A stretch of DNA of 64,000 nucleotides from Candidatus Nanopelagicales bacterium (GCA_049428425.1 JBMTAF010000001.1:3464-67463); one strand, 5' to 3'; positions 34,317 through 60,376 are shown, counted from the stretch's first letter. The notes: generated by a model not told the origin, from the letters alone. Numbers and translations: made by a program.

Positions 34317-35285
34317 ATGTCTATTTCGGTTGAGCATGTTCCAGTAATGGTTGATCGCATAGTTGAACTATTGTCGCCAGCTTTAACTGGCGATGAGTCA
34401 ATTATGGTCGACGCAACTCTAGGTGCTGCTGGTCATGCAACCGTATTTCTTAAGTTATTTCCAAAGTTGCAGATAATTGGGATCGATCGTGATCCACAAG
34501 CGGCCCAGTTAGCACTTTCAAATCTAACTTCTACATTTGGCGAAAACGTAACGTCTAGATTTCGGATGCTAGAGGTCGAATACGATCAAATTGAGAGTGC
34601 TGTTAAACAGCTTCAGATTTCAGAGGTCGATGCAGTGCTGTTCGATCTTGGTGTTTCAAGTATGCAACTAGATCAGCAAAACCGTGGTTTTTCTTATAGT
34701 AAATCTGCACCGCTAGATATGCGGATGAACTCATCAACTGGCGTTACCGCAGCCGAGCTAGTGAATACGGCAGATGTTCGTGATCTAATTCGAATCTTAA
34801 AAGTTTATGGTGAAGAGAAATTTGCAACTCGAATAGCGAATGAAATTGTTAAGGCTAGAAGCAAAACTCCCTTTGAAACCACAGACCAGTTAGTTGCTTT
34901 ACTTTATGAAGTCATCCCAGCTCCAGCACGACGCACTGGTGGTCATCCCGCAAAACGAACTTTCCAAGCTTTGCGAATCGCGGTAAATGATGAATTACAA
35001 ATTCTTGAAAAAGCGATTCCAGCAGCGCTGAACTTACTTAAAGTTGGCGGCCGGATTGCGGTTCTTTCTTACCATTCTCTGGAAGATCGGATTGTAAAAC
35101 AAGCATTCCGAACTGCGATGGGTGAACAACCAATGCCTGGATTGCCACTGCCGCCTGCCCCAGCAAAGTTAAAGTTGCTGACAACAGGTGCGGAGCGACC
35201 AGCAGCAGCTGAAGTAGCGTTAAATCCACGCGCTGCCAGCGCAAAATTACGAGCTGCTGAGATTCTGATTAAGGCTGCCGCATGA
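34317..35285 (+). CDS. rsmH: 16S rRNA (cytosine1402-N4)-methyltransferase
   Basis: HVPVM, DATLGAAGH, DLGVSSMQLD and SYHSLEDRIVK motifs. Confidence 0.95.
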   Translation: MSISVEHVPVMVDRIVELLSPALTGDESIMVDATLGAAGHATVFLKLFPKLQIIGIDRDPQAAQLALSNLTSTFGENVTSRFRMLEVEYDQIESAVKQLQISEVDAVLFDLGVSSMQLDQQNRGFSYSKSAPLDMRMNSSTGVTAAELVNTADVRDLIRILKVYGEEKFATRIANEIVKARSKTPFETTDQLVALLYEVIPAPARRTGGHPAKRTFQALRIAVNDELQILEKAIPAALNLLKVGGRIAVLSYHSLEDRIVKQAFRTAMGEQPMPGLPLPPAPAKLKLLTTGAERPAAAEVALNPRAASAKLRAAEILIKAAA

Positions 35286-35680
35286 GCGCATTAGTAGATT
35301 TTGCATCAGCCAAAGTAGCGGTGATTCGACCACAACTGGGCGTGCTAACTGGCGGCAGAGAAATTGCAATTTCCAAGGTTCGCCCTATTTCAACTTCCTT
35401 TTTCGTCAGCATTGTGGCTTTGCTTATCGCTTCATCGATGATCGGAGTGATTTTTTTACAAGCACTTGTTGCCAAAAGTGCTTTTCAGAAAATTGATCTG
35501 GTTCAGCAACGAACAGAGTTGATTGCTGAGCGGGCTTACCTCATGGAACGTGCCGCACAATTAGAATCACCACAGCTGCTCCGAGAGCGCGCTGAGCGGT
35601 TAGGGATGGTCACGCCAGAACGTCCAACTTACCTAAGACTTTCAGATCAAAAATTGCTTGATGGGCAACGAACTAGATGA
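35282..35680 (+). CDS. ftsL: FtsL-like septum formation protein
   Basis: One TM helix followed by a coiled-coil segment. Lies between rsmH and ftsI with 4-bp overlaps on both sides. Confidence 0.6.
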   Translation: MSALVDFASAKVAVIRPQLGVLTGGREIAISKVRPISTSFFVSIVALLIASSMIGVIFLQALVAKSAFQKIDLVQQRTELIAERAYLMERAAQLESPQLLRERAERLGMVTPERPTYLRLSDQKLLDGQRTR

Positions 35681-37425
35681 CCGACCAACTGGCATTAGCT
35701 AAGCATCGAAAACAATCAAAAGGCAGAATGGTCTTTACTGCACTGCTTTTTTTTGCAATCTTTGTGACCTACACTTCACAACTAGTTAAAATTCAGGCTG
35801 TTGAAGCCGGTGAATTAGCGCAACAAGGGCTTGAAAAGAGATTGCGAGAAGTAGTTGTTCCGGCGATGCGTGGTTCGATTACTGATGTAAATGGCGTAGC
35901 ACTTGCAACTACCGTCCCAGCTTTTAACTTGACCGTGGATCAGACTCGAGTCGTTAAACCTGGCAAAACCGCGACAGAATTGTCGCGAATTCTTGAAATG
36001 CCAGCTGCCGAAATTAAGTCACGTCTTGTTGGTGATAAACGATTCGTTTATTTGGCTAGAGCAGTCACTACACAGACATGGGATCGAATCGCAAACCTAA
36101 AATTGCCAGGCATATATTCTGAACGAACAACCAGGCGGGTTTATCCCTATTCCGACCTGGCAGGAAATGTATTGGGCTTTGTTGGCACTGATGGACATGG
36201 ACTGTCTGGGTTAGAGTCCGGCTTGGAATCAATTCTTGGCGGCAAAGATGGCGTAATGCGCTTTGAAGGCGGCGCTGCTGGTAGAAAAATTCCAGCAACG
36301 GATTCGAGAACTGAAAATGCCGTACCAGGCACGACGGTACGGTTAAGCATTGACCGCGATTTACAGTATGTCGCACAAAATGCCATTGCTAAAAAAGTAA
36401 AAGAGGTCAATGCTGACTGGGGTAGCGTAGTTGTTTTAGAGCCAGCAACTGGTCGATTACTGGCACTTGCCTCGGTTCCAACAGTAAATCCTGCTGAACC
36501 ATTGAAATCGACCATTACAGATCGAAAAAATCGAGCAGTAACCGACATGTTTGAACCTGGCTCAACTGGAAAATTGATGACTTTCGCTGCAGCTTTAGAA
36601 GAAGGTGTGATCCAACCAACTTCCAAGATTAAGGTGCCACCGAGACTCGCACGTCCGGCAAAGGTATTTAATGACCATACCCCACACGGACATCTGAAGT
36701 TAACTGCAAATGGTGTATTGGCCCAAAGCTCAAACATTGGCACAATATTGATTGCGGAGAAACTCCCAAAACCAGAACTATTGCATGACTATTTTGTTAA
36801 GTTCGGCATCGGACAAAGAACTTCGTTAGGTTTTCCAGGCGAATCAGCTGGCGCAATATTGACACCTAGCAAATGGTCCGTAACCACATTTCCTACCATG
36901 GCATTTGGTCAAGGCTATGCAACAACTGCCGTGCAAATGGCTTCAGTTTTTGCAACCATCGCTAATGATGGTGTTCGGATGCCAGTCAGTTTAATTGACG
37001 GCTATGTTGGCAGCGATGGCATTTTTACTCCAGTGAAACCAAAAACTGGCATCGAAGTGGTCTCGCCACAAACTGCAATTACGCTTCGTGAAATGCTCGA
37101 GAGTGTGGTGGGTCCCGAAGGCACGGCACCCTCTGCACAGATCAGCGGTTATCGAGTCGCTGGTAAAACTGGAACTGCGCAGCGGTCAGAACAGGCTTGC
37201 GGCGGTTGCTACTCCGGCTTCACTGCATCGTTTATTGGCATGGCACCCGCGAACAAGCCCAGCATTGTGGTGGCGGTAGTTGTAGATAATCCACGAAATG
37301 GCCATTATGGTGGTGTGATCGGTGGACCAGTATTTAAAGAAGTGGCGACTTTTGCGCTGCAGAAGTTGAAAGTAATGCCACAAGGTGGCAGAGTGGAGAA
37401 AATTCCAACCACCTGGGGTAGGTAG
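35677..37425 (+). CDS. ftsI: Penicillin-binding protein (FtsI, class B transpeptidase)
   Basis: STGK (SxxK), SSN and KTGT motifs, with an N-terminal membrane anchor. Confidence 0.9.
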   Translation: MTDQLALAKHRKQSKGRMVFTALLFFAIFVTYTSQLVKIQAVEAGELAQQGLEKRLREVVVPAMRGSITDVNGVALATTVPAFNLTVDQTRVVKPGKTATELSRILEMPAAEIKSRLVGDKRFVYLARAVTTQTWDRIANLKLPGIYSERTTRRVYPYSDLAGNVLGFVGTDGHGLSGLESGLESILGGKDGVMRFEGGAAGRKIPATDSRTENAVPGTTVRLSIDRDLQYVAQNAIAKKVKEVNADWGSVVVLEPATGRLLALASVPTVNPAEPLKSTITDRKNRAVTDMFEPGSTGKLMTFAAALEEGVIQPTSKIKVPPRLARPAKVFNDHTPHGHLKLTANGVLAQSSNIGTILIAEKLPKPELLHDYFVKFGIGQRTSLGFPGESAGAILTPSKWSVTTFPTMAFGQGYATTAVQMASVFATIANDGVRMPVSLIDGYVGSDGIFTPVKPKTGIEVVSPQTAITLREMLESVVGPEGTAPSAQISGYRVAGKTGTAQRSEQACGGCYSGFTASFIGMAPANKPSIVVAVVVDNPRNGHYGGVIGGPVFKEVATFALQKLKVMPQGGRVEKIPTTWGR

Positions 37426-37427
37426 CA

Positions 37428-38888
37428 ATGAACGCTCCCACGTTGGCCGACATCTTTAAGCACTACCAAGTGGACTCAATCTCGCTAGTTGAAGTAGAAC
37501 ACGTCTATCACAACTCCGAAGATGTGACGTCAAATAGCATTTTCTTTGCGCTGCCTGGAGCGAATCAACATGGCGCAAATTTTGCCAAGAGTGCGATTGC
37601 GAACGGTGCAATTGCAATATTTACAGATGCCGCGGGAGCAAAACTAATAGATGGCGATATACCGGTTGTAGTTGTGATGGATCCGCGATTTGAAATGTCT
37701 CAGGTAACAAAATTTGTGTATGGGCACCAGATTGCTGATATGCATCTGTGGGGGATAACTGGAACTAATGGCAAGACAACTACTAGTTACATGTTGCGCG
37801 CACTGTTACCACAACCAGCTGCTGCAATTGGCACAACTGGAGTGGTGTATCCAGATCATCGCGAGACACTTGCTCGTACCACGCCAGAAATTGACGACTT
37901 GTATCGATTGCTAATCAAACTACGAAAAGATGGAATTAAGAAAGTAGTGCTAGAGGTATCTAGTCATGCTTTAGTCCTACATCGAGTAGCTGGATTAGAG
38001 TTCCAAGCGGTTGGTTTTACTAATTTAAGCCAAGATCATCTAGATTTTCATAAGTCTATGGATGAATATCTTCGCGCCAAGGCTCAATTATTTGATGGGA
38101 ATTACAGTAAGTATGCCGTTGTTTGCGTGGATTCGCTTTCTGGCAAATCCATTGCAGATCTTGCCGAAGCAAATGGCATGGTGGTATCAACGGTCAGCAC
38201 TAATGATTTAAGTGGAACCTGGTCAGTAACTGAAAAGATGGTCGGTATAACTAGCCTTAATTCGATCATCAATCCAATTGGGTTGAAATTGAGCCTAAAT
38301 TTTGGTGGGGAATTTAATTTTGCAAACGCTTTAGTTGCCGTTGCAATGGCCGATCAAGTGAGTGAAATATCGCAAAATCAGATAAATGCGCTCGCGAATT
38401 TGACCATCCCCGGACGAATGCAGGTTATCGCAGAAAACGGGGTTCAAGCCATTGTTGATTACGCCCACTCGCCGGCGGCAATTGAATCAGTGATTCAAAC
38501 GTTGCGCCAAAGCGTTTCTGGAAAGTTGATCGTGGTTATTGGTGCAGGTGGAGACCGAGATAAGTCAAAGCGGGCCGCGATGGGGAGTGCAACGGTTGGC
38601 GCAGACTTAGTCATTGTTACTGACGATAATCCACGCAGTGAAGACCCAGCAGTAATTAGGCAGCAGGTAATTCAAGGGATTGAATCAGAGGGAGTCACTT
38701 GTCAAGAGATTGGCGATAGAAGAGAAGCAATCGCGGCAGCAGTAGGACTAGTTTCATCGAGTAATGATTTAGTCGCAGTGCTAGGCAAAGGCCACGAACA
38801 AGGGCAGCAGATTGGTGAAAAAATTTATGACTTTGACGATTACACGGAACTAAAGTTTGCGATCATGAATCGAGGCAGCCATGGCTGA
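37428..38888 (+). CDS. murE: UDP-MurNAc-L-Ala-D-Glu--2,6-diaminopimelate ligase
   Basis: GITGTNGKTTT P-loop, DDNPRSEDP motif, and dcw position. Confidence 0.9.
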   Translation: MNAPTLADIFKHYQVDSISLVEVEHVYHNSEDVTSNSIFFALPGANQHGANFAKSAIANGAIAIFTDAAGAKLIDGDIPVVVVMDPRFEMSQVTKFVYGHQIADMHLWGITGTNGKTTTSYMLRALLPQPAAAIGTTGVVYPDHRETLARTTPEIDDLYRLLIKLRKDGIKKVVLEVSSHALVLHRVAGLEFQAVGFTNLSQDHLDFHKSMDEYLRAKAQLFDGNYSKYAVVCVDSLSGKSIADLAEANGMVVSTVSTNDLSGTWSVTEKMVGITSLNSIINPIGLKLSLNFGGEFNFANALVAVAMADQVSEISQNQINALANLTIPGRMQVIAENGVQAIVDYAHSPAAIESVIQTLRQSVSGKLIVVIGAGGDRDKSKRAAMGSATVGADLVIVTDDNPRSEDPAVIRQQVIQGIESEGVTCQEIGDRREAIAAAVGLVSSSNDLVAVLGKGHEQGQQIGEKIYDFDDYTELKFAIMNRGSHG

Positions 38889-40254
38889 ACTTACTTTAGC
38901 TGAGATTATTGCGATTACCAATGGTGTACCAAATCAATTATCTGATCTGGAAATTAAGCCAGTTGGGATTAGTTATGACTCTAGGGATACAAAACAGGGC
39001 GATTTATTTGCTGCGTTTGTTGGACAGAATTCAGATGGCCATGATTTTGTAAATGCAGCAATAGCTTCGGGTGCAGTTGCAGCATTAGTTTCAAAGCCAA
39101 TCGCAAGTCCAAGCATTTTGGTGGATGATGTTTTGTTAGCGATTACTAAGTTGGCAGCGGCAAATCGGGCCAAATTAGATGTTCCAGTTTTGGCACTAAC
39201 TGGATCTGCTGGGAAAACCACCACCAAGGATCTATTGATTGACTTATTGCAACCGCTAGGCAAAGTAATTGCGACAACGGGTTCGCGCAATAATGAATTG
39301 GGGTTACCCGTAACCCTGTTTGCTGCTGACAAACATACAGCCGCCGTTGTGCTTGAAATGGGAGCACGTCATCGCGGCAACATTAGAGAGTTATGCGAAA
39401 TTGCAAAGCCAACAATTGTCGGTATCACCAATATTGGTTCAGCTCACCTTGGTGAATTTGGTTCTAGAGAGATGATTATGCATACTAAAGGTGAGATAGT
39501 TGAGTTACTGCCACCAAGTGGAATAGCTGTTTTAAACGCGGATCAGCCGGAATCGATGCAGATTGCACGCAAAACGAAAGCCAGGGTTCAGTACGCTGGA
39601 TTTGCTGATTCAGCTGATCTGAGAATTGAAAATCTCAAACTAGATTCAACTGCCCGATGTTCGTTTGATTTGGTTACCCCGCTTGGTGAAGTCAGAATTA
39701 AGTTGAAGCTGGTTGGTGAACACCAAGCCCACAACGCCGCTATCGCAGCTGGAATGGCTTTAGCGGCTGGACTTTCCCTCGAGCAGGCTAAACACGGCCT
39801 TGAAGCTGCCGTCGCAAGGAGCCAGATGCGACTTTCCGTAGAAAAGATTTCGAACTTTATTGTTATTGATGATTCCTACAACGCAAATCCCGAGAGCGTA
39901 ACGGCGGCCCTAACTACGCTGAATCAGATGGAATGCTCGGGAAAGCGAATCGCCGTGCTTGGGGAGATGGCTGAATTGGGGGAGCAAAGTATTGAATTGC
40001 ACCAGGAGATCGGAAGCTCAGCAGCCAATTTAGACCTGCTAATTGGAGTTGGTGATTTTGGCAAGCTGATTATTTCTGGGGCAATTCAAGGCGGCATGGC
40101 GCCCGAGGTTGTTTGTTTGGTCGAAACGAAAGAATTAGCGATATCTAAGCTCAAGCAAGAATTACAATCCGGTGACGTTGTGCTGATAAAGGCCTCGCGA
40201 TCAGCTGGTTTTGACGAGATAGCAGGCGGCTTGCGAAATTGGGCGAAAGGGTGA
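38881..40254 (+). CDS. murF: UDP-MurNAc-tripeptide--D-Ala-D-Ala ligase
   Basis: LTGSAGKTTTK P-loop, DDSYNANP motif, and an 8-bp overlap with murE. Confidence 0.9.
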   Translation: MAELTLAEIIAITNGVPNQLSDLEIKPVGISYDSRDTKQGDLFAAFVGQNSDGHDFVNAAIASGAVAALVSKPIASPSILVDDVLLAITKLAAANRAKLDVPVLALTGSAGKTTTKDLLIDLLQPLGKVIATTGSRNNELGLPVTLFAADKHTAAVVLEMGARHRGNIRELCEIAKPTIVGITNIGSAHLGEFGSREMIMHTKGEIVELLPPSGIAVLNADQPESMQIARKTKARVQYAGFADSADLRIENLKLDSTARCSFDLVTPLGEVRIKLKLVGEHQAHNAAIAAGMALAAGLSLEQAKHGLEAAVARSQMRLSVEKISNFIVIDDSYNANPESVTAALTTLNQMECSGKRIAVLGEMAELGEQSIELHQEIGSSAANLDLLIGVGDFGKLIISGAIQGGMAPEVVCLVETKELAISKLKQELQSGDVVLIKASRSAGFDEIAGGLRNWAKG

Positions 40255-40264
40255 GGTAACCAAA

Positions 40265-41332
40265 TTGCGCTTAATCGTCTTCGCGGCAGTGCTCTCTTTA
40301 GTTACCAGTTTGCTTACCACAACTGTGCTAATTAAGTTTCTTCGCAATCGTGGTTTAGCGCAAGCAATTAAGCAATCAGGTGATGGCGCGATTTATCCAG
40401 ATCATGAGCATAAGCGCGGTACGCCAAGCATGGGTGGAATAGCCATAGTGTTTTCCGTGTTAGTTGGTTACAGCGGTTCGCATTTGGTTTTCTGGACTCC
40501 GCCTTCAGCTTCTGGATTATTAGTGCTTGGTTTAACTTTGGCGCTAGCATCGATTGGATTTGTTGACGACTATAAGAAAGTTTTCTTACAGCACAGTGCT
40601 GGAATTAAACCTCGCACAAAATTGATTTTTCAAACTCTGATCGGTTTTGCCTTTGCATTTACCGCACTTCAGTTTGCTGATGAACGCGGAATTACACCAG
40701 CATCACTGGCAATATCAATTGTTCGAGAAACCAGCATTGTTCTGCCTGCGGTGCTTATGATGTTATTTATCTGGCTAATGATTACGGCCACCACAAACGC
40801 CGTGAACATAACTGATGGTCTTGATGGTTTGGCATCTGGTGCCGCGTTTGTCACTTTTGCGGCTTACGCATTAATTGGGTTTTGGCAATTTGGTCAAAGT
40901 TGCGCAAGAGATGATTACATTAAATGCTATGAAGTAAGGGATCCACTTGACCTTGCGATTGTCGCGGCGGCTTTTGCGGCGGCTGTTTTTGGATTTTTAT
41001 GGTTTAACACTTCGCCAGCCATAATAATTATGGGTGACACTGGATCATTTGCCATTGGTGGTGCAATTGTTTCGTTGGCAATCTTTACCAATACCCAATT
41101 GCTTCTGATTTTTCTTGGCGGATTATTCGTCATGACAACTGGTTCGGTTGTCCTGCAACGAATCTCATTTAAGGTTCGGAGGAAGCGAATTTTCTTGATG
41201 TCACCAATCCATCATCATTTTGAATTAAAGGGATGGCCAGAACAGCAAATTGTGGTTAGGTTTTGGATTTTGCAAGGTCTATTTGTTGGCACTGCGATGG
41301 CACTTTTTTATGCAGAGTGGGTTGCTCGGTGA
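40265..41332 (+). CDS. mraY: Phospho-MurNAc-pentapeptide transferase
   Basis: 10-TM protein with VDDYKK, NAVNITDGLDGLA and PIHHHFE motifs. Confidence 0.95.
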   Translation: MRLIVFAAVLSLVTSLLTTTVLIKFLRNRGLAQAIKQSGDGAIYPDHEHKRGTPSMGGIAIVFSVLVGYSGSHLVFWTPPSASGLLVLGLTLALASIGFVDDYKKVFLQHSAGIKPRTKLIFQTLIGFAFAFTALQFADERGITPASLAISIVRETSIVLPAVLMMLFIWLMITATTNAVNITDGLDGLASGAAFVTFAAYALIGFWQFGQSCARDDYIKCYEVRDPLDLAIVAAAFAAAVFGFLWFNTSPAIIIMGDTGSFAIGGAIVSLAIFTNTQLLLIFLGGLFVMTTGSVVLQRISFKVRRKRIFLMSPIHHHFELKGWPEQQIVVRFWILQGLFVGTAMALFYAEWVAR

Positions 41333-42750
41333 GAGATTTATCGGCTATTTCTCGCAACCAAAGTCTTGCCGGTTGGAACATAGTTGTATTAGGAATTGGG
41401 GTAGCCGGCTTTGCCTGCGCTGATGCTTTACTGCGCTATGGCGCTTCGGTCACAGTTATTGATGAAGGTGATTCGGCAGATGCGAAAAAGCGAGCCCAAA
41501 TTCTGGAAACTCTTGGCGCTAGAGTTGAGTTAGCAGCAACCAATCTGCCACCGGCAGATTTAGTTATTACTTCGCCTGGGTTGCCACCAGATCACTCCTG
41601 GCTAATTCACTATCAATCGACCCAAACCCCTATTTGGGGTGAGCTGGAGCTAGCGTGGCGATTGCGTGATCCAAACGTGCCATGGTTACTCATCTCTGGC
41701 ACTAATGGTAAAACCACCACAACACTAATGACTAATGCCATTTTGACTGCAGCTGGATTGAAATCAAAAGCAATTGGGAATATCGGACATGCCGCAATTG
41801 ATGCGGTTACCGATGGCGAGACCTATGACGTTTTTGTGGTTGAAGTTGGAGTTCAGCAGTTGCCCTTTGTCTTTACCATCTCACCGCTTGCCGCGGTGGT
41901 TTTGAATCTTGCGCCAGATCATCTTGATCATTTTGGCACCATGGAGCACTATCGAAATATGAAGGCAAAGACTTATAACAATACGGTTATCGCTGCAATT
42001 TATAACGATGAAGATCCAATCACCATGAAGATGGTTGAGGATGCTGAAGTAGTTGAAGGCTGTCGCGCCATTGGCTTTACTCGAAATATTCCAGCGCGGT
42101 CAATGGTTGGGGTAGTTGAAGACTTGATAGTTGATCGAGCCTTTGTTGCCGAGCGCGCTACTTCTGCCCAAGAGTTAGCTTCAGTTTTAGACGTGAGGCC
42201 GTTTGCGCCTCATAACGTAAGTAATGCGCTTGCTGCAATTGCTTTAGCTAGAGCCTATGGCGTGCCAGCTAGTGCGGTCAGCGCTGGCTTGCGAAGCTTT
42301 GAACCAGCAGCACATCGAATTGAATTGGTTGCCGAGATTGATTCTGTCCGATATATCGATGATTCAAAAGCCACTAACGCGCACGCTGCAATACAATCTA
42401 TTTTGGCTTATGAGAATGTGGTCTGGATTGGTGGCGGTGACGCTAAAGGTCAGAATTTGCTGGAGTTAGTTAAATCAACCGCAGGTAACATGAGAGCTGC
42501 AGTGCTGTTGGGTCAAGATCGTGCTGAATTGTTCCAACAGCTGCGTGATACCGCACCAGATTTACCAATAACAGTTATCGATGAAACGAACCCGGACATA
42601 GCGATGGAGCAGGTGGTGTCAGCTGCCGCTACGTATGCACAAGCTGGTGATACTGTGCTGTTGGCACCAGGATGTGCCTCTTGGGATATGTTTAAAAACT
42701 ATTCCCATCGCGGTGAGCTGTTTGCAAAACATGTCAAGCTGCTTGGTTAA
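41329..42750 (+). CDS. murD: UDP-MurNAc-L-Ala--D-Glu ligase
   Basis: GIGVAGFA Rossmann motif and SGTNGKTTT P-loop. In-frame GTG at 41329 forms a GTGA overlap with the mraY stop; the ORF track starts at 41263. Confidence 0.9.
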   Translation: MRDLSAISRNQSLAGWNIVVLGIGVAGFACADALLRYGASVTVIDEGDSADAKKRAQILETLGARVELAATNLPPADLVITSPGLPPDHSWLIHYQSTQTPIWGELELAWRLRDPNVPWLLISGTNGKTTTTLMTNAILTAAGLKSKAIGNIGHAAIDAVTDGETYDVFVVEVGVQQLPFVFTISPLAAVVLNLAPDHLDHFGTMEHYRNMKAKTYNNTVIAAIYNDEDPITMKMVEDAEVVEGCRAIGFTRNIPARSMVGVVEDLIVDRAFVAERATSAQELASVLDVRPFAPHNVSNALAAIALARAYGVPASAVSAGLRSFEPAAHRIELVAEIDSVRYIDDSKATNAHAAIQSILAYENVVWIGGGDAKGQNLLELVKSTAGNMRAAVLLGQDRAELFQQLRDTAPDLPITVIDETNPDIAMEQVVSAAATYAQAGDTVLLAPGCASWDMFKNYSHRGELFAKHVKLLG

Positions 42751-44249
42751 TTCCAGTTTGGAACTGAGATGTATTTGGTTTCAAGGAATTCCTCAATGCC
42801 TTCAAAGCCACCTTCCCGTCCCAAACCAGATTGCTTAACACCACCGAATGGTGCAGCTGGATCGCTTACTAAGCCGCGATTAATTCCGACCATTCCAGTC
42901 TCGATCTGTTCGGCCATCTTCAAGCCACGGGCTAAGTTTTCAGTGAAAACGTATCCGACTAGGCCAAACTCAGTGTCATTGGCGAATGCGATTGCTTCTT
43001 TGTCGGATTCGATTCGGGTAATTGCTGCCACCGGACCAAAAATTTCCTCGCCCAACAGCGGGGAATCCTTGGGCACATCACCTAAAACGGTTGCTGCGTA
43101 AAAGGCACCTGGTCCATTTGTGCCAATGCCTCCAAGTGCGGCTTTGCTCCCTCGCTTGACCGCATCAATTACCAACTGCGCAACGCGATCATGAGCTTTT
43201 CTTGAAACTAGCGGAGCTAAAGTTGTATTTGGATCAGTGCCATGACCTGGTTGTAGTTTGGCCATTTCAGCACTTAAACGTGAGACAAACTCATCATGAA
43301 CTTTTGAATGGACAATAAATCTATTTGCTGCAGTGCATGCTTGGCCACAATTTCGCATTTTTGCAATCATCGCACCTTCAATGGCTTTATCTAGGTCAGC
43401 ATCTTCCATCACAATGAAAGGCCCATTTCCACCTAACTCCATTGACGAGCGCAAAATGCGACCAGCTGCTTTTTCGAGCAGCATTCGACCTATCGGCGTA
43501 GAACCGGTAAACGATAGTTTTCTTACTTCTGGATGTGAGAAAGCAGCATCAGTAATCTCGTTTGGGTTCTTGGTCGTTAATACGGTTAGCACACCAGGTT
43601 CAACGCCAGCATCCAAAAATACTTGCGCAATTGCAAATGCGGTAAGCGGTGTTTCAGTTGCTGGCTTCACCACAACTGCATTTCCAGCAGCCAATGCCGG
43701 ACCAATCTTTCTAGTCATCATGGCAGCGGGGAAGTTCCATGGCGTGATTAGGTAAGCAATACCAATTGGTTGCTTTACCGTAAGAATTCGGTGCACACCT
43801 GAAGGTGCAGTTCGAAGCTCGCCACCAATTCGGACAGTTTCTTCGGAGAACCAACGAAGAAACTCTGCTGCGTAAACTACTTCATTTCTTGCTTCAACTA
43901 ACGTTTTGCCACTTTCTAGTGTCATCAATAGTGCGATGTCATCAGCTCGCTCAACCATAAGATCAAACGAACGACGAAGAATTTCGGCACGTTCTCTTGG
44001 CGAAACTTTTGCCCATTTCTGCTGTGCCAGATGCATTTCATCCAATACTGCAAGTAGATCAGCTCCTGTGGCATTACCAACTGTCAGAAGTACTTCACCA
44101 TTGGCTGGGTCGGTTACTGGAATTGGTTCACCGCTGGTTGCCGACCAACGGCCAGCTAGCAGGGATTGGTGTGGAACGGTCTTTAGAACGGCTTGAGCAC
44201 GGGCCTGATCGGATACCGGGGCTGCCACTGGAAGATTTGAAGTAGTCAT
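42747..44249 (-). CDS. gabD: NAD(P)-dependent succinate-semialdehyde dehydrogenase / aldehyde dehydrogenase family
   Basis: ELGGNGP (catalytic Glu) and NCGQACTAANR (catalytic Cys) motifs, 500 aa. Antisense to the surrounding dcw genes. Confidence 0.85.
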   Translation of the reverse strand: MTTSNLPVAAPVSDQARAQAVLKTVPHQSLLAGRWSATSGEPIPVTDPANGEVLLTVGNATGADLLAVLDEMHLAQQKWAKVSPRERAEILRRSFDLMVERADDIALLMTLESGKTLVEARNEVVYAAEFLRWFSEETVRIGGELRTAPSGVHRILTVKQPIGIAYLITPWNFPAAMMTRKIGPALAAGNAVVVKPATETPLTAFAIAQVFLDAGVEPGVLTVLTTKNPNEITDAAFSHPEVRKLSFTGSTPIGRMLLEKAAGRILRSSMELGGNGPFIVMEDADLDKAIEGAMIAKMRNCGQACTAANRFIVHSKVHDEFVSRLSAEMAKLQPGHGTDPNTTLAPLVSRKAHDRVAQLVIDAVKRGSKAALGGIGTNGPGAFYAATVLGDVPKDSPLLGEEIFGPVAAITRIESDKEAIAFANDTEFGLVGYVFTENLARGLKMAEQIETGMVGINRGLVSDPAAPFGGVKQSGLGREGGFEGIEEFLETKYISVPNWN

Positions 44250-44330
44250 GGGCGCATCTTCTCACGAAGACCCAGCGACACGCAGCCGAGATTGCCCAGA
44301 CCAACGGCAACTGCAGTAGAGACTTACCCC

Positions 44331-45509
44331 ATGGAAAAGCACGCTTCCCCCGTGCCGGCCCGGTCGATGAGTCGACGGGTGCCTGCTCAGGCCTCATTTC
44401 AGTTGATTCGTGGCAGCGCGATCCTGCTGTTATTTATTGGATTAATCATGGTGCTTAGTTCCTCATACTACGAATCGAAATTGGTCTACGGCAGCGAGTT
44501 CACCATATTTTTCCGGCAGTCTTTGTACGCCTTGCTGGGCGCAATTGCTTTAGTGATTCTCGCAAAAATTGACCTTGATGTGTTTCGTCGATTAATCCCG
44601 CTAATTTTGCTCGGAGTTGTTGGTCTATTACTCCTAGTGTTTATTCCCGGCTTGGGTTCAACAGTTGGCGGTCAAACTAACTGGTTAGATTTTGGTTTCG
44701 GAATTCGACTCCAACCTAGTGAATTCGCGAAATTCGCACTTATAGTTTTTGGTGCACATCAACTTTCAACTCGGCATCACTTTCTGAATTCAAAATCTAC
44801 CTATGTAGCACCGGTAATTTTTACTACTGGATTAGTAATGGCGCTGATAATGTTTGCAGGGGATCTTGGCAACGCTGTGGTTATCGGCTTAGCTGTTGGC
44901 TTAATGCTATTTGTTGCTAACGCACCACTGAGATATTTTGCTGGGGCAGCCGTGATTGGCACTGGCGTGATCGGAATCATGGCTTATCTGCGGCCATATC
45001 GAATGGATCGAATCACATCTTGGTTGAATCCAGAAGCTGATCCTGAAGGCGCTGGATTTCAGGCAATGCATGCCAAGTTTGCGCTGGCTTCTGGTGGTTT
45101 TTTTGGACAAGGACTTGGTGCAAGTCGCGAAAAGTGGGGAACATTGCCGGAAGCGCATACCGATTTCATTTTTGCCATCATTGGCGAAGAGCTGGGAATG
45201 TTAGGTGCAATTGCAATTTTGACTTTGTTCTTAATTCTTTGCGCTGGAATCATCACGCTAGGTCGAAACAGTAGTTCTGATTTTGTCAGATATGTTTGCG
45301 CTGGCGCAGTTGGCTGGATCGGTGGTCAAGCGATGATCAATATCGGTGCGGTGCTTGGCGTGCTACCAATTATGGGCGTTCCACTTCCGCTGGTTTCGAC
45401 GGGCGGTTCCGCGTTAATCCCAACTTTGGCAATGATCGGTTTGTTACTGACGTTTGCTCAGCGAGAGATAGCTGATGCTGCGTCTGAGGAAAGTGCTGAG
45501 AAGAATTAG
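44331..45509 (+). CDS. ftsW: SEDS-family cell division protein FtsW
   Basis: Multi-TM SEDS protein with a TDFIFAIIGEELG motif. Start uncertain (ATG 44331 or TTG 44292). Confidence 0.85.
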   Translation: MEKHASPVPARSMSRRVPAQASFQLIRGSAILLLFIGLIMVLSSSYYESKLVYGSEFTIFFRQSLYALLGAIALVILAKIDLDVFRRLIPLILLGVVGLLLLVFIPGLGSTVGGQTNWLDFGFGIRLQPSEFAKFALIVFGAHQLSTRHHFLNSKSTYVAPVIFTTGLVMALIMFAGDLGNAVVIGLAVGLMLFVANAPLRYFAGAAVIGTGVIGIMAYLRPYRMDRITSWLNPEADPEGAGFQAMHAKFALASGGFFGQGLGASREKWGTLPEAHTDFIFAIIGEELGMLGAIAILTLFLILCAGIITLGRNSSSDFVRYVCAGAVGWIGGQAMINIGAVLGVLPIMGVPLPLVSTGGSALIPTLAMIGLLLTFAQREIADAASEESAEKN

Positions 45510-45511
45510 AA

Positions 45512-46597
45512 ATGCGTGTGGTACTTGCTGGCGGCGGAACTGCAGGGCATGTTGAACCGGCGATTGCGATTGCAGCCGAACTTGAGGCCTCCGGACTTGC
45601 AACCCGCTCCGAGATTTACTTTGTCGGCGGTTTTCGTGGCTTAGAGGGAAAGTTAGTGCCAGCGCGCGGTTTTCAACTTCGGCAAATTAATATTGTTGGC
45701 TTACCAAGAAAACTGAGCCTGGCGCTAATCAAATATCCATTCATGCTATGGCGGGCAAGATCTCGTCTGGTCCAGTTCTTGAAAGAAATAAAACCTGACG
45801 TTGTTATTGGTTTTGGCGGGTATGTTTCTGCCCCCACCTATCTGGCAGCAAAAAAATTAGGAATTCCAATCGTTGTTCATGAAGCGAATGCTCGACCTGG
45901 AGTTGCAAATCGCCGAGCATCAAAATTTGCCGATTTGGTAATTGATAGCTTTGCCGGCAGCATTCCAGGGGCAAGAACCCTTGGTGTACCAGTTAGAGCC
46001 GAATTAGTTGCACTAAATCGTGAACAAACAAAGATGGTAGCTCGAACGCACTTTGGTTTTGCTGGCAGCAATCCACTCTTACTAGTTTTTGGCGGATCAC
46101 AAGGTGCGGAGCGGATTAATCAAGCAGTTTCCGAAATCGCACCCACTCTTACATTTGCTGGTGTGGATATTCTGCATATTGTTGGGGATCTGAATCTTGC
46201 GAAGTATCAGTCGTTGACGCATCAAAGCGCTGGCGAATACAAAATACTCGGTTACTGTAATCGAATGGATTTAGCTTATGCTGCAGCTGATTTAGCAGTA
46301 ACTAGATCTGGCGCATTAACGGTGGCTGAATTGGCAGTGGTTGGATTACCAGCAATTTTAGTGCCATATCCAGTAGGCAATGGCGAACAAGAATTTAATG
46401 CCGCTGAATTAGTGGCGGTTGGTGGCGGGAAACTATTGCTCAATGCCGATTGCACGCCCGCAAAATTGAAACTAATGATTACGCCATTAATTAAGTCTCC
46501 GCAGGATTTGCAGGAAATGTCTGCAAAGGCAAAATCCATTGCTCGCCCAAATGCCGCAAGAGAGATTGTGAACGCAGTTAAGTTGGTGGTGAAATGA
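45512..46597 (+). CDS. murG: UDP-GlcNAc:lipid I N-acetylglucosaminyltransferase
   Basis: GGTAGHVEPA N-terminal motif, C-terminal SGALTVAELA, and dcw position. Confidence 0.9.
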   Translation: MRVVLAGGGTAGHVEPAIAIAAELEASGLATRSEIYFVGGFRGLEGKLVPARGFQLRQINIVGLPRKLSLALIKYPFMLWRARSRLVQFLKEIKPDVVIGFGGYVSAPTYLAAKKLGIPIVVHEANARPGVANRRASKFADLVIDSFAGSIPGARTLGVPVRAELVALNREQTKMVARTHFGFAGSNPLLLVFGGSQGAERINQAVSEIAPTLTFAGVDILHIVGDLNLAKYQSLTHQSAGEYKILGYCNRMDLAYAAADLAVTRSGALTVAELAVVGLPAILVPYPVGNGEQEFNAAELVAVGGGKLLLNADCTPAKLKLMITPLIKSPQDLQEMSAKAKSIARPNAAREIVNAVKLVVK

Positions 46598-47985
46598 CGT
46601 CGCTACCTAAATCTGGAATACACATCATCGGAATTGGCGGTGCCGGCATGTCTGCGATTGCTCGGGTGCTGATTGGTCGTGGATATCAGGTTTCAGGCTC
46701 TGATGCGAAAGACTCAAAACGGTTATTGATGCTTAAACAATTGGGAATAAAAGTGTCGGTGGGACATCAAGCTGAGAACTTAACTGGGGTGAAGCTCGTT
46801 GTCGCTTCAACTGCAGTTCCGGCGACAAATATTGAGATTGCAACTGCAAAGGAATTGAACATTCCGGTAATTAGTCGAGCAGAAGCCCTGGCCTTGATTG
46901 TGGCGGACTCAAAAGTTATCGCAGTTGCCGGCACTCATGGCAAGACCACAACCACATCGATGACCACGGTAGCGCTGCAGTCCCTTGGTTTAGACCCATC
47001 TTTCATCATTGGCAGTGAACTTAATGAAACTGGTAGCAACGGACACCATGGTGAATCTGAGATATTTTTGGTTGAAGCAGATGAAAGTGATGGCACTTTC
47101 CTCTGGCTTAAGCCGCAAATCGGTGTCATCACGAACATTGAGGCGGATCATCTAGATCGTTGGGAATCGCTCAACGAGATTGCAAATGCCTTCTATGAAT
47201 TTGGCATGTCTTGTGAATTGGGTGTGGTTAGTTGTGCCGATGATAACGGTGCCGCAGAGATAGCCATGAGATTGCAACAAGCAGGAAAACAAGTTTTCAA
47301 CTATGGGTTTGCTGATTCCGCTGATCTACAGCTAAGAAATGCCACAGTGGATGATGGAAAATGGAAAGTTGACCTGTACCTACACCAAGAATACGTTGGC
47401 GCATTAAGTTTGCAAGTGCCCGGAAAGCACAACTTGCTCAATGCTGCGGCTGCCATTTCGGTTGGAATATTGTTGAATTTTGAACTTGGCGAATTAATTT
47501 CAGGTTTAGCTGAATTCAGCGGAACTCGCCGCCGATTCGAACATCGCGGAACTGCTAACGGCGTAAAAGTTTATGATGATTATGCTCATCATCCAACTGA
47601 AGTTATGGCTACTCTCAGCGCTGCTCGTGCCGTAGTTGGGTCTGGAAATGTTGTTGTAGTTTTCCAACCCTTTAGATATTACCGAGTCGCAGCATTTCTG
47701 CCTCAGTTCGCTGCAGCGTTAGGTTTGGCCGATCGGGTAGTAGTAATGGAAACCTACGCGCCAGGTGAATCAGCCATTCCAGGATCTGGCGGAGCAGCTG
47801 TTGCAGCTGCGATTGACCTTGCGCCAGAGAATGTGACGTTTGAGCCATCGTTCCTGAAAGTAGTTGATTTGATTGCTGCCTGGACGAAACCAGGAGACAT
47901 CGTACTTACGTTAGGCGCCGGTGACATGGCGATGTTGGCACCTGAAATTGTTGCCGGACTTAAGCAAGTTGAAGATGAGAAGTAA
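46594..47985 (+). CDS. murC: UDP-N-acetylmuramate--L-alanine ligase
   Basis: GIGGAGMSAIA and AGTHGKTTTT motifs, and DDYAHHPTE. Confidence 0.9.
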   Translation: MTSLPKSGIHIIGIGGAGMSAIARVLIGRGYQVSGSDAKDSKRLLMLKQLGIKVSVGHQAENLTGVKLVVASTAVPATNIEIATAKELNIPVISRAEALALIVADSKVIAVAGTHGKTTTTSMTTVALQSLGLDPSFIIGSELNETGSNGHHGESEIFLVEADESDGTFLWLKPQIGVITNIEADHLDRWESLNEIANAFYEFGMSCELGVVSCADDNGAAEIAMRLQQAGKQVFNYGFADSADLQLRNATVDDGKWKVDLYLHQEYVGALSLQVPGKHNLLNAAAAISVGILLNFELGELISGLAEFSGTRRRFEHRGTANGVKVYDDYAHHPTEVMATLSAARAVVGSGNVVVVFQPFRYYRVAAFLPQFAAALGLADRVVVMETYAPGESAIPGSGGAAVAAAIDLAPENVTFEPSFLKVVDLIAAWTKPGDIVLTLGAGDMAMLAPEIVAGLKQVEDEK

Positions 47986-48658
47986 CTCAAAATCGATTCG
48001 ACTTAAGTGGTGGCTAATCTCAATCAGCCTCATAGTTGGCGCAGCGTTCGGAATAACTTGGGTGGTGCAAACCACATCAGATGCGACTGTTGCTGCGATA
48101 GAAGTACAAGTTGCAAGCAAGGCGCTAGTTACCCCAGTTAAGAACGTTGCTGCCATCGAGGTAGGCGAACGCATCTCTGATCTAAATCTAAGTGCCGCCG
48201 CGGCCAGAATAACGCAGTTGCCACAAGTTAGGTCAGCAAATGTTGAGCGCAGTTGGCCAGATCGAATTGTGATTTCTGTTGATTTGCGAGAGCCGATTGG
48301 CTGGCTTCGGTTTGGTGGTGAAATTTGGTATTTGGATAATACGGGTGAGAAATACCAACCAAAGGTAACTGCGGCAAAACCGGGTCTGCCACTTTTCGAA
48401 GCGGCCTCTGACCGATTATTGCTAGCGAGCACTCGAAGCTACGAGTATCTGCCCAATCGACTAAAGAATCGGTTGAGCAAGGTGACAGCTCCAACCACAT
48501 CGAACATCCGTTTCATCCTTACATCAGGAGTCACAATTATCTGGGGAAGCGAAGAGCGCAGTGCGCGCAAAGCTGAGGTGCTGAATGTTTTGTTGCAGCG
48601 AAAAGCCGAGGTTTATGATGTTTCTGCCCCTGATCTGCCGACAATACAACTGAAGTAA
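47975..48658 (+). CDS. ftsQ: Cell division protein FtsQ (POTRA domain)
   Basis: Basic N-terminus, one TM helix, POTRA-like segment, and position after murC. ATG at 47975 overlaps murC by 11 bp; the ORF track starts at 47921. Confidence 0.75.
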   Translation: MRSNSKSIRLKWWLISISLIVGAAFGITWVVQTTSDATVAAIEVQVASKALVTPVKNVAAIEVGERISDLNLSAAAARITQLPQVRSANVERSWPDRIVISVDLREPIGWLRFGGEIWYLDNTGEKYQPKVTAAKPGLPLFEAASDRLLLASTRSYEYLPNRLKNRLSKVTAPTTSNIRFILTSGVTIIWGSEERSARKAEVLNVLLQRKAEVYDVSAPDLPTIQLK

Positions 48659-48716: not shown

Positions 48717-49721
48717 GTGAAATCCACTATTGAGGAAGTCGCCAAACGTGCTGGCGTAAGCACAGCGACGGTTTCTCGTGCGCTTCGTGGCCTTGCCAGT
48801 GTGACGCCAGAGACAAAGTTTCGAGTTGAGCAGGCAGCGCGCGAACTTGATTATGTAATCTCACCATCCGCTTCAAGATTGGCGTCAGGCAAAACTTCAA
48901 CGGTTGGGGTTATTGCACCATTTATTGATCGCTGGTATTTCGCAAACTTGCTATCAGGGATTGAGCGGGTTAGTAGATCTGCCGGATTTGATATGTTGGT
49001 TTATTCCTTAGATCGTTTAGATGAGCGGGAGCGAATATTTCATCACAAATTAGTGAGGGAACGGGTTGATGCCTTGCTGGTCTGTGCTATGCCACCAAAT
49101 CAAGATGAAATTTCTTTCCTGCAACAAGCTCGATTGCCGGTCGCATTAATTGGTGCAGAGGTTCCAGGTTGTGCCAGCGTTCGAATAGACGATGTTGGTG
49201 GCGCAAAAGCGGCAACTGGTCATCTAATCAATATGGGACACCGCCGGATTGGCTTAATTGCTGAGTCACCACTGCAACCAATGTCCTTCACTGCGCCCAG
49301 GGATCGCCGAGCTGGTTTCCTAGCTGCACATGACGAAGCCGGATTGAAGTTTGATCCAGCGCTCGAGGCATTTGGTTCATTCACGATTGAAAGTGGTGAA
49401 CGGGCGATGGATGAGCTATTGGCGAAACCACAACCACCGACTGCCGTATTTTGCGAATCTGATGAGATGGCATTTGGTGCGGTAAGTGCGATTCAGCGCC
49501 ATGGTCTAAAGGTGCCACAAGATATTTCTATCGTAGGTTTTGATGATCATGATCTGGCTAAGTATCTGAATTTAACTACCGTGGCACAGCCGGTGCAGGT
49601 TATGGGGGAAACTGCAACTTGGGTGATTTTGGATCAGGTAAAAAATAACCGCAGCGAACCTAAAGCGGTAGTTATGCCCACGCAGTTAATTGTGCGTGGC
49701 AGTACCGCTCGCTTAACATAA
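48717..49721 (+). CDS. LacI family transcriptional regulator
   Basis: N-terminal HTH TIEEVAKRAGVSTATVSRALRG followed by a periplasmic-binding-protein-like sugar-binding fold. Confidence 0.85.
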   Translation: MKSTIEEVAKRAGVSTATVSRALRGLASVTPETKFRVEQAARELDYVISPSASRLASGKTSTVGVIAPFIDRWYFANLLSGIERVSRSAGFDMLVYSLDRLDERERIFHHKLVRERVDALLVCAMPPNQDEISFLQQARLPVALIGAEVPGCASVRIDDVGGAKAATGHLINMGHRRIGLIAESPLQPMSFTAPRDRRAGFLAAHDEAGLKFDPALEAFGSFTIESGERAMDELLAKPQPPTAVFCESDEMAFGAVSAIQRHGLKVPQDISIVGFDDHDLAKYLNLTTVAQPVQVMGETATWVILDQVKNNRSEPKAVVMPTQLIVRGSTARLT

Positions 49722-49753
49722 AAAACAGGGCCAACTTTCGCTGGCCCTGTTTT
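49722..49753. terminator. Bidirectional rho-independent terminator between convergent lacI-family and msiK-like genes
   Basis: Stem CAGGGCCA (49726-49733) pairs with TGGCCCTG (49742-49749) around an 8-nt loop. It is flanked by an A-run upstream and TTTT downstream. Confidence 0.7.
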
Positions 49754-49766
49754 CTGAATTATCTGG

Positions 49767-50834
49767 TTAGTTAAGGCGTGGACCTTCTTCAGTAGCATCA
49801 AAGAAATGCATTGAATTTGGCTTAACCTTGATTGTGTCACCACGCTTAATATTAGAATCAGATCCAACTCGCACAGTGATATCTTTCTTACCATCATCAT
49901 TGATGGTGCCGTAGAGGAATTCGTCTGAACCAAGTTCTTCGACCAAATTAACAGTCATGGAAATTCCGTCATTTGCTACTTCTAAATGTTCTGGTCGAAC
50001 TCCAACCACAACCTTGTTGCTGGAAGCTTTGGCAGCAGCGGCAGCATCCATGCTAACTTCGTAACCACCAATCTTCACAGTGGTGCCGCTTAGATTTCCT
50101 TCAAGTAGGTTCATCGCAGGGGAACCAATGAATCCAGCAACAAATGCATTTGCTGGCCGGTCATATAGTGCCCGTGGGGTGTCAACTTGTTGCAGCACGC
50201 CAAACTTGAGCACCGCAACGCGGTCACCCATAGTCATAGCTTCAACCTGATCGTGTGTCACATAAATTGTGGTAACGCCAAGTCGTTTTTGTAATGCAGC
50301 AATCTGAGTTCTGGTTTGCACGCGCAACTTCGCATCCAAGTTGGAAAGCGGTTCATCCATCAAGAAGACCTGAGGTTCGCGAACAATTGCTCGTCCCATC
50401 GCAACACGCTGACGTTGACCACCAGAAAGTGCTTTTGGCTTTCGGTCTAGATATTCCTCTAGATCCAACAGTTTTGCTGCTTCCTCAACGCGACGTCGAA
50501 TCTCGTCCTTTGCAACACCAGCAATTTGCAGCGCAAAGCCCATGTTCGCAGCAACTGTCATATGCGGATAAAGGGCGTAGTTCTGAAACACCATCGCAAT
50601 GTCTCGATCCTTTGGCGCAACATCAGTGACATCACGATCGCCGATCATGATCGCGCCCTGATCGCATGGCTCGAGGCCTGCGATCATGCGAAGCGCAGTG
50701 GATTTTCCGCAGCCCGATGGGCCAACTAGCACTAGGAACTCGCCGTCACTAACGGTGAGATCAAGTGATGAAACAGCAGGACGCGCACCGGGGGTGTAAA
50801 TCCGAGATGCGCCTTGAAATACAACAGGTGCCAT
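49767..50834 (-). CDS. Sugar ABC transporter ATP-binding protein (MsiK/UgpC/MalK type), orphan ATPase
   Basis: Walker A GPSGCGKST, signature LSGGQRQRVA, Walker B FLMDEPLSNLD, and a C-terminal MalK-like regulatory domain. No permease or binding-protein genes adjacent. Confidence 0.85.
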   Translation of the reverse strand: MAPVVFQGASRIYTPGARPAVSSLDLTVSDGEFLVLVGPSGCGKSTALRMIAGLEPCDQGAIMIGDRDVTDVAPKDRDIAMVFQNYALYPHMTVAANMGFALQIAGVAKDEIRRRVEEAAKLLDLEEYLDRKPKALSGGQRQRVAMGRAIVREPQVFLMDEPLSNLDAKLRVQTRTQIAALQKRLGVTTIYVTHDQVEAMTMGDRVAVLKFGVLQQVDTPRALYDRPANAFVAGFIGSPAMNLLEGNLSGTTVKIGGYEVSMDAAAAAKASSNKVVVGVRPEHLEVANDGISMTVNLVEELGSDEFLYGTINDDGKKDITVRVGSDSNIKRGDTIKVKPNSMHFFDATEEGPRLN

Positions 50835-50927
50835 TTGACTCCTCTAATCGGGCCTGCAAGCAGGCGAACTTGTTCGGCAGGTGTCCCCGGCCGTTCGGGG
50901 TTACTTGGCTAACTTAGCGCAGATGCT

Positions 50928-51467: not shown

Positions 51468-51578
51468 GCACAGAAAATGTCCCCAGAATCACCTGCGACA
51501 ACGTAATTTCTTAGCAACGAAAGTTGAGTTATCTCTAACTCTCAACTAGAGAATTAGAGTTACGTTGATGGAGGCGTT

Positions 51579-60305: not shown

Positions 60306-60376
60306 GTTAGCGTCAATCCTTAATTTCTGGAGCAGAGTGATTAGGGTTGCAAGATCGAGGCGAGATAGGAAAAATC

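Follow-up and report, generated by a model that had tools for sequence, protein, structure and literature searches.

The gene order in the dcw (division and cell wall) cluster belongs to the most highly conserved in bacteria, and why it is so conserved is still debated. Here we describe a dcw cluster from Candidatus Nanopelagicales in which an antisense aldehyde dehydrogenase (ALDH) gene separates murD from ftsW, and in which a WhiA-type promoter probably serves ftsW from the short gap between the two divergent genes. The cluster is located in a stretch of 64,000 nt (GCA_049428425.1 JBMTAF010000001.1:3464-67463, Candidatus Nanopelagicales bacterium), hereafter the window, and all coordinates given are positions in it.

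Interrupted dcw clusters with restart promoters, as well as the control of ftsW and ftsZ by WhiA/WhiB, are already known in Actinobacteria. In Mycobacterium tuberculosis, ftsI and murE are kept apart by PE_PGRS38 and Rv2161c-Rv2159c; murE-ftsQ makes up an operon of its own that has its own promoter, and ftsZ is transcribed separately (PMC3605390). In Streptomyces venezuelae, WhiA recognizes GACAC and is a direct activator of ftsZ, ftsW and ftsK; an ftsW-specific promoter has been noted inside the dcw operon, with a WhiA chromatin immunoprecipitation peak 269 bp upstream of ftsW (PMC3781837). The WhiA/WhiB2 motif of M. tuberculosis is GACACGCC, and both ftsZ and ftsW are bound and activated by WhiB2 (PMC13473873). 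At the leaderless promoter of sepX, WhiA is positioned upstream of the -35 element and WhiB bridges WhiA to region 4 of sigma-A (PMC10243135).

As in M. tuberculosis, the cluster studied here is an actinobacterial dcw cluster broken by unrelated genes, with a downstream block that probably has a promoter of its own. It differs in the site of the break, which is ftsI|murE there and murD|ftsW here, and also in its nature: the break consists of one metabolic gene, highly conserved, which converges on the upstream gene and overlaps its stop codon, whereas the genes inserted in M. tuberculosis are presumably co-directional with the cluster. S. venezuelae, M. tuberculosis and the window have in common a GACAC(GCC) box that precedes ftsW and ftsZ, but the ftsW site of the first two is within or near murD, where the cluster is uninterrupted, and that of the window is in an 81-bp gap bounded by the divergent ALDH gene. 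The sepX promoter is leaderless and carries its box upstream of the -35 element, on the non-template strand; ftsW is predicted to be leaderless here. A metabolic gene that is conserved in antisense orientation within the dcw cluster of Nanopelagicales, occupying two alternative positions in related lineages, appears to be undescribed, as do a WhiA box embedded in murD codons and the relocation of such a box to an intergenic relic; our literature searches on dcw interruptions in Nanopelagicales or acI, and on succinate-semialdehyde dehydrogenase (SSADH) in acI, returned nothing relevant.

Genes were called from a six-frame list of open reading frames (ORFs) and NCBIfam scans. The window, with a guanine-cytosine (GC) content of 47%, was assigned to Candidatus Nanopelagicales (freshwater acI-type Actinobacteria) in a MurD-anchored scan of species-representative genomes. 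All 13 dcw genes, from mraZ to ftsZ, occur in canonical order on the plus strand. Their contiguity and common direction are broken twice, by the ALDH gene at 42747-44249 and by lacI, a ugpC-like gene and unk179 at 48717-51467. The earlier note on this DNA, made from the sequence alone, had reported a single interruption; the break between murD and ftsW is real, but the ftsQ|ftsZ junction is broken too. The features around the first break are the following:

41263-42750, plus strand: ORF of murD, UDP-N-acetylmuramoyl-L-alanine--D-glutamate ligase (TIGR01087, E 1.1e-104, above cut-off)
42747-42750: TTAA common to the convergent stop codons of murD and ALDH, seen in the sequence
42747-44249, minus strand: NAD(P)+ aldehyde dehydrogenase of the SSADH (GabD) type, 500 aa (NCBIfam, PDB 3JZ4)
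44250-44330: putative divergent control region between ALDH and ftsW, 81 bp (five-genome footprint; likeness to outgroup murD-internal segments)
44256-44261, minus strand: GAAGAT at -12 to -7 of the ALDH ATG, read from the alignment
44276-44284, plus strand: WhiA-type box CGACACGCA, core GACAC, on the non-template strand for ftsW (invariant in 5 genomes)
44319-44324, plus strand: -10-like hexamer GAGACT, with A at -11 and T at -7 (five-genome footprint)
44331-45509, plus strand: ftsW, SEDS peptidoglycan polymerase / lipid II flippase family (TIGR02614, E 7.7e-110, above cut-off)

Mapping of the gene order in relatives by tblastn retrieved the same layout (murD >< ALDH <> ftsW) from four other independent assemblies obtained from different samples (L001, L002, L081 and L091), which bears out the proposal that an antisense ALDH gene splits murD from ftsW. 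The MurD proteins of these assemblies are 65-79% identical to that of the window and the identity of the flanking proteins goes down to about 50-65%; the TTAA junction and the gap can be aligned among them. The murD|ftsW junction is contiguous in L003 and L045, which are more distant Nanopelagicales, and in the other Actinobacteria L004, L005, L006, L008 and L026. A chimeric join at 42750 or 44250 would turn the layout into an assembly artefact, to which we give practically no chance: five independently assembled contigs from different samples share the order and the junction sequences at 60-95% protein identity, and this rules out the mis-assembly that the earlier note had allowed for. Comparison of the dcw loci of relatives, by which that note hoped to date the insertion, places ALDH in the cluster before the clade split; it gives no finer date, as the genome scan with a single MurD sequence recovered few Nanopelagicales.

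The stop codons of murD (TAA, 42748-42750) and ALDH (TAA, complement of 42747-42749) do share the tetranucleotide TTAA, as had been noticed in the sequence, and the overlap is kept in L001 and L002. Such a 4-nt convergent overlap is ordinary in this compact genome, and the window contains a second one at 54950-54953. No terminator-like structure was predicted at the convergent murD/ALDH junction. Scans revealed no promoter-like site of the sigma-70 consensus and only weak terminator-like sites inside coding sequence, no Rfam match was found in 42000-45000 at E <= 1, and the RNA folds at the gap and at the junctions were not unusual, with z-scores between -0.5 and +0.2. As a terminator would not fit into the junction and is not predicted there either, the read-through antisense to ALDH that had been asserted is possible. 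The longest murD ORF, from TTG 41263, overlaps mraY by 70 nt and matches its family from residue 39, and the true start of murD is probably near 41330.

The best NCBIfam family for the ALDH product is TIGR01780 (E 2.9e-160), and the best solved structure is GabD of Escherichia coli (3JZ4), with a full-length alignment (E 6e-139). The motifs WNFP, ELGGN and GQACTAAN align with 3JZ4 and are invariant in the window and acI clades; the protein has the features of the ALDH superfamily fold, including the catalytic Cys, the general-base Glu and the oxyanion-hole Asn, and Pfam PF00171 is found on all ALDH homologs. Unlike E. coli GabD, with which it shares the ALDH catalytic motifs, the window protein has a lineage-specific N-terminal extension of about 16-20 aa. 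Its scores are below the curated SSADH cut-offs (534 vs 646 bits for TIGR01780; 499 vs 828 for PRK11241), so we label it SSADH-like and not SSADH, the assignment being at the subfamily level only. The previous description of a 500-aa SSADH-like gene on the opposite strand is therefore upheld by the TIGR01780 and 3JZ4 matches, and homology suggests a substrate of the succinate semialdehyde type. The gene is present in a single copy within the window.

In this ALDH, L001 and L002 are 93-95% identical to the window, vs only 62-79% in MurD, FtsW, MurG and MurC. The synonymous differences of ALDH are as saturated as those of the neighbouring genes (pS 0.68-0.74), its dN/dS of 0.013-0.03 is in the same range as that of ftsZ, and its GC content is unremarkable. 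Saturated synonymous sites together with a low dN/dS indicate that ALDH was in place before these lineages split and has been under strong purifying selection, and we are highly confident that it is a real and ancient gene, vertically inherited in the clade. Recent horizontal transfer, suggested at first sight by the 93-95% identity, was ruled out by the saturated synonymous sites and the unremarkable GC content. An analysis of synonymous-site conservation for regulatory elements embedded in ALDH gave only a mild enrichment at the 3' end (4/10 vs a 15% baseline).

The ATG of ALDH is at 44249-44247. The ftsW ORF may begin at TTG 44292, but five genomes agree on ATG 44331 as the start, and the gap is accordingly 81 bp long; the distance had been put at about 40-80 bp. 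The gap reads CGACACGCA-N37-GAGACT-N6-ATG, and the box is at -55 to -47 from the ftsW ATG and 27-35 nt from the ALDH ATG. The five-genome footprint further contains the element nA.ACT (GAGACT; CAAACT in L081), exactly at -12 to -7 of the ftsW ATG, and ATGG..A.GCACG.TTCCCCCGTGC, invariant over the first ftsW codons. These conserved elements are likely functional, because synonymous sites are saturated between the five genomes. The first ftsW codons also hold an inverted repeat, GCACG-CTTCCCC-CGTGC (44339-44355, plus strand, codons 3-9), invariant in the five genomes despite the saturated synonymous sites; this GCACG-N7-CGTGC repeat shows no covariation and has a fold z-score of -0.5.

There is no Shine-Dalgarno sequence in front of ftsW, the best match being 4/6 at -16. 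Among 25 gene starts surveyed in the window, the combination of nAnnnT at -12 to -7 and no Shine-Dalgarno sequence was found for rnd, ALDH, ftsW, lacI and unk179, all of them heads of transcription units, and for none of the operon-internal genes. The pattern suggests that transcription units of this genome often start with a leaderless mRNA; ftsW is accordingly placed among the predicted leaderless genes, with its start deduced from conservation. Three of these starts, rnd (32832, minus strand), lacI (48717, plus strand) and unk179 (51467, minus strand), have TANNNT or nAnnnT at -12 to -7 and lack a Shine-Dalgarno sequence. The hexamer before the ALDH ATG is GAAGAT in the window and GAGGAT or CAAGAT in relatives, and could be either a Shine-Dalgarno sequence or the -10 element of a leaderless ALDH transcript.

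A promoter box of the same kind, kept across actinobacterial orders, is written into the murD coding sequence of outgroups. All six that were compared (L045, L003, L004, L005, L007 and L008) use CGA-CAC-GCn for the MurD peptide RHAP. The share of CGA among the Arg codons in the dcw genes of those six genomes is 0.4%, 1.8%, 2.4%, 12%, 16% and 20%, and the joint chance of finding CGA at this position in 6/6 is about 7e-9; there is nucleotide-level selection for GACAC(GC) inside murD. The box of outgroup murD genes is about 230-310 nt upstream of ftsW. In four genomes it is followed 36 nt later by a -10-like hexamer (GAGACT in L045 and L007, GACACT in L003, CACGAT in L008), and the ATG found 6 nt past this hexamer is the Met codon of MurD 'ET.AM'; the L004 segment reads as in L003, and L005 has extra sequence at the hexamer. 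The murD genes of the window clade have lost the box, with LRDTAP where outgroups have RHAP. The box is also lost from acI murD (FEKYSP, LQQLAP and similar), and no replacement is visible in acI within 330 nt of ftsW.

Since the box, spacing and hexamer of the gap match the murD-internal promoter of outgroups, murD|ftsW would already have been a promoter-bearing boundary, in agreement with the WhiA/WhiB binding and activation published for ftsW of Streptomyces and M. tuberculosis (PMC3781837, PMC13473873). The likeness extends into the spacer: over the first 28 nt past the box, the five window-clade gaps are 35.6% identical to outgroup murD segments, against 25.8 +/- 3.6% in position-permuted controls (P = 0.004), and translation of the gap in the frame of the box gives RHAAEIA, vs RHAPEVP in MurD. 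The 27 nt upstream of the gap box have no likeness to outgroup murD segments. Closest to the gap is L045, with the full 9-mer, GAGACT and ..CC ATG, which groups with the window clade and acI in the tree of dcw proteins (177/200). Taken together, these comparisons make it probable that the gap derives from the murD 3' end, as a decayed fragment holding the ancestral ftsW promoter, and we regard an ancestral WhiA-type ftsW promoter in this gap as probable. It had been argued that ftsW-murG-murC-ftsQ need a new promoter there; conserved promoter-like elements are indeed present, but they match an ancestral, murD-internal promoter.

The 9-mer CGACACGCA occurs exactly twice in the 64 kb, in both cases on the plus strand, once upstream of ftsW and once upstream of ftsZ (2 vs 0.35 expected; 4/100 shuffles reach 2). 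It matches the WhiA motif GACAC in 5/5 core positions and GACACGCC of M. tuberculosis in 7/8 extended positions, and this likeness points to WhiA/WhiB as its putative ligands. The second copy is at the other break of the cluster, ftsQ|ftsZ:

48717-51467: second cluster interruption (NCBIfam; kept in L001, L002, L091 and L171)
48717-49721, plus strand: LacI-family regulator
49767-50834, minus strand: UgpC/MalK-type ABC ATPase
50928-51467, minus strand: lipoprotein-like ORF unk179, 179 aa, with four conserved Cys
51462-51470, plus strand: second copy of CGACACGCA, upstream of ftsZ (9-mer scan of the window)

The ABC ATPase is an orphan and possibly an MsiK-like ATPase shared among sugar transporters. 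The ftsZ copy of the box is followed after 36 nt by TAATTT (51504-51509), the corresponding spacing to GAGACT at ftsW being 37 nt, and it is kept in L001, L002 and L171, where TAATTT or TAACTT comes after N36. The sequence upstream of ftsZ is GACACGCC-N37-TAAGTT in acI and GACACGCG-N36-TACCGT in Pseudarthrobacter. Between the WhiA box and the Shine-Dalgarno sequence of ftsZ we also observed a conserved, imperfect inverted repeat, AGTTGAGTTA-TCTC-TAACTC(TC)AACT (51522-51547); a related repeat, GAGTTAC..GACATAACT, is present in Pseudarthrobacter (L005 and L026), and a similar one, GATACTTGACATAACT, in L171.

Both breaks of the window, murD|ftsW and ftsQ|ftsZ, thus sit at junctions that already had an internal promoter. 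An insertion may have been tolerated at murD|ftsW because this junction already carried one, ftsQ|ftsZ being the other boundary of this type. The latter appears to be a recurrent insertion site. In L007, another metagenome-assembled genome related to Nanopelagicales, a co-directional gene, resembling a sodium:solute symporter to judge by its sequence, is found between ftsQ and ftsZ (positions 5916-7646 of L007).

In protein searches, the ALDH clade of the window is tight, at 74-99% identity, and is followed by a drop to 58-60%. The homologs at 58-60% come from typical acI genomes (GC content 39-42%), where they are also antisense inside the dcw cluster, but behind ftsQ, in the order ftsQ >< ALDH <- PD-(D/E)XK <- PD-(D/E)XK <- pntB <- pntA <> ftsZ, with murD and ftsW contiguous. 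Here ALDH is the last gene of an antisense cassette; its stop codon overlaps that of ftsQ, likewise in TTAA, and the ALDH-containing unit starts back-to-back with a WhiA-box division-gene promoter, as in the window. In acI contigs L083-L089 and L092 the ftsQ-ftsZ gap is filled by this cassette of 6-8 genes, which include the transhydrogenase genes pntAA-pntAB-pntB, two genes of the PD-(D/E)XK nuclease family and ALDH; a subclade represented by L087 has two extra ORFs directly upstream of ALDH. A contig with a different ALDH C-terminus and a co-directional downstream ORF (L082, P0007/P0008) was set aside as probably chimeric; the N-terminus of its ALDH is identical to P0006 over the stretch compared.

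An affinity between the window and acI ALDHs is indicated by several characters. The N-terminal extension and the motifs DPANG and WAK are common only to the window-clade and the dcw-embedded acI proteins, and quartet site counts favour their grouping (4:0:1, 2:0:1 and 4:0:1). With a hidden Markov model of the window clade from which the N-terminus was excluded, the 11 dcw-embedded acI ALDHs were the top 11 of 38 sequences, above the other 27. The GabD of Jatrophihabitans type (P0026) is outside the dcw cluster. A metagenome scan with the ALDH alignment gave mostly soil ALDHs, with L091 and L092 as the only informative loci; the other 78 serve as a negative control, and among the matches listed none of them has a dcw gene near ALDH. 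The earlier note took the gene for an insertion, but the nearest ALDHs being antisense in the acI dcw cluster, behind ftsQ, makes movement within the cluster more likely.

The explanation that we favour, with moderate confidence in the whole, combines a conserved antisense ALDH, an ancestral WhiA-type ftsW promoter and a relocation within the cluster. ALDH would divide the dcw cluster into a unit from mraZ/rsmH to murD, ALDH itself on the other strand, a unit from ftsW to ftsQ, and ftsZ onward, these being putatively separate transcription units, and ftsW would be independent of the upstream dcw promoters by means of a WhiA/WhiB-type promoter in the 81-bp gap. ALDH would initially have been antisense behind ftsQ, as it is today in acI. 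The simplest path to the present order would then be a tandem duplication of the segment [murD 3' end - ftsW..ftsQ - ALDH], with subsequent loss of the first ftsW..ftsQ copy and of the second ALDH copy; this would have left ALDH before ftsW, and the duplicated murD fragment would have decayed to the promoter now forming the gap: murD >< ALDH <> [murD 3' relic = promoter] ftsW..ftsQ. For this last component, relocation by duplication and loss, we see about an even chance. A remnant of the duplicated segment may be present at the new junction, as the gap resembles the murD-internal promoter, but the features that it shares with it are also functional promoter elements. As to the ancestral order, acI has ftsQ >< ALDH, with both the sisterhood of the ALDHs and the branching order of the species weakly resolved.

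Instead of having moved within the cluster, ALDH could have come from elsewhere and landed at murD|ftsW independently of acI, its WhiA-box promoter having newly evolved by convergence. Several observations lean that way and weigh against relocation: the window and acI ALDHs were sisters in only 68 of 200 neighbour-joining bootstraps, the window clade is on a long stem, the divergence between both groups exceeds what their flanking genes predict, and a basal ALDH subclade (P0015) is outside the dcw cluster. In the weakly resolved species tree, moreover, L045, with its contiguous cluster, may branch between the window clade and acI. The promoter elements are short and able to converge, and shared promoter constraints could produce part of the spacer likeness instead of common descent. 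A link that would favour relocation is weak as well: unk179 matches the ORF next to the L087 ALDH (Y182) at hhalign E 9e-4 and probability 23%, with four aligned Cys, a lipobox in both and a similar length; as the homolog search with unk179 retrieved window-clade members only, its link to this acI cassette gene is one weak profile alignment. However, an independent arrival has to accommodate nearest relatives that are all antisense in the dcw cluster of acI, against 0/78 of the other ALDH loci among the matches listed, and an agreement between the gap and the outgroup murD promoter that covers spacing, GAGACT, 'CC ATG' and the spacer identity. Neither GC content nor synonymous divergence has any sign of recent foreign origin, and we hold a fresh insertion to be rather unlikely.

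The nature of the gap can also be read in other ways. If ftsW had no separate promoter, ftsW-ftsQ would be expressed mainly by read-through across ALDH, and the motifs of the gap would regulate ALDH; the box is just 27-35 nt from the ALDH ATG, and no terminator-like structure was found at the murD/ALDH junction or in the gap. GAAGAT, for its part, could simply be the Shine-Dalgarno sequence of ALDH, a point against the favoured explanation. Yet the same 9-mer is found upstream of ftsZ, in the same orientation and with the same hexamer spacing, where there is no ALDH; in five genomes nA.ACT keeps a distance of exactly 6 nt to the ftsW ATG, and ftsW lacks a Shine-Dalgarno sequence; and direct control of ftsW by WhiA/WhiB has been reported (PMC3781837, PMC13473873), all of which makes such a dependence on read-through very improbable. 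A box bound by a regulator other than WhiA, common to ftsW and ftsZ, would leave the rest of the model as it is. No whiA or whiB gene was found within the 64-kb window, the motif scan covering WhiB only, and the adjacent invariant GCACG-N7-CGTGC repeat hints at further factors. Also against the favoured explanation, GACAC is short, and the N36/37 spacing is not enriched in the window (5/48 GACAC sites, about the chance expectation), so we did not use the spacing rule as independent evidence. Against another regulator stand the exact GACAC and the 7/8 match to GACACGCC at two dcw genes that are WhiA/WhiB targets in two other actinobacterial orders (PMC3781837, PMC13473873), and we judge it unlikely, with WhiA/WhiB as the preferred candidates.

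The remaining dcw genes of the window are as follows, murG, murC and ftsQ being co-directional with ftsW and overlapping or adjacent:

33632-34063, plus strand: mraZ
34317-35285, plus strand: rsmH
35282-35680, plus strand: ftsL
35677-37425, plus strand: ftsI
37428-38888, plus strand: murE
38881-40254, plus strand: murF
40265-41332, plus strand: mraY
45512-46597, plus strand: murG
46594-47985, plus strand: murC
47921-48658, plus strand: ftsQ
51579-52769, plus strand: ftsZ (TIGR00065, E 5.2e-124)

Elsewhere in the window, dnaE (DNA polymerase III alpha) is broken by one in-frame TAA at 60917-60919 into two ORFs (60347-60919 and 60953-63916), which share one frame and span positions 3-162 and 176-1143 of the profile; a sequencing error, a pseudogene or recoding may lie behind this.

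The ALDH-containing unit is back-to-back with a WhiA-box division promoter both here, at ftsW, and in acI, at ftsZ, which raises the idea that ALDH is no passive passenger and that one WhiA/WhiB-bound region jointly or reciprocally sets its expression and that of the machinery for septal peptidoglycan. Transcription converging on murD would contribute antisense interference as well. We consider such joint control quite improbable; were it true, it would constitute a hard-wired link between metabolic state (the gamma-aminobutyric acid shunt or a variant tricarboxylic acid cycle, and NAD(P)H supply) and cell division.

Bacteria of the acI type are the most abundant in freshwater and are poorly cultivable. 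For freshwater metatranscriptomes, the proposed arrangement predicts an ftsW mRNA that is leaderless, together with WhiA boxes at 44276 and 51462. The ftsW box embedded in murD, with its Arg-His-Ala peptide and rare CGA codon, occurs in diverse Actinobacteria and can be tested in model organisms. More generally, the locus is a natural experiment on the order of the dcw cluster: both of its breaks are at junctions that have WhiA/WhiB-type internal promoters in Actinobacteria, suggesting that it is transcriptional architecture, and not gene adjacency as such, that decides where the dcw cluster can open.

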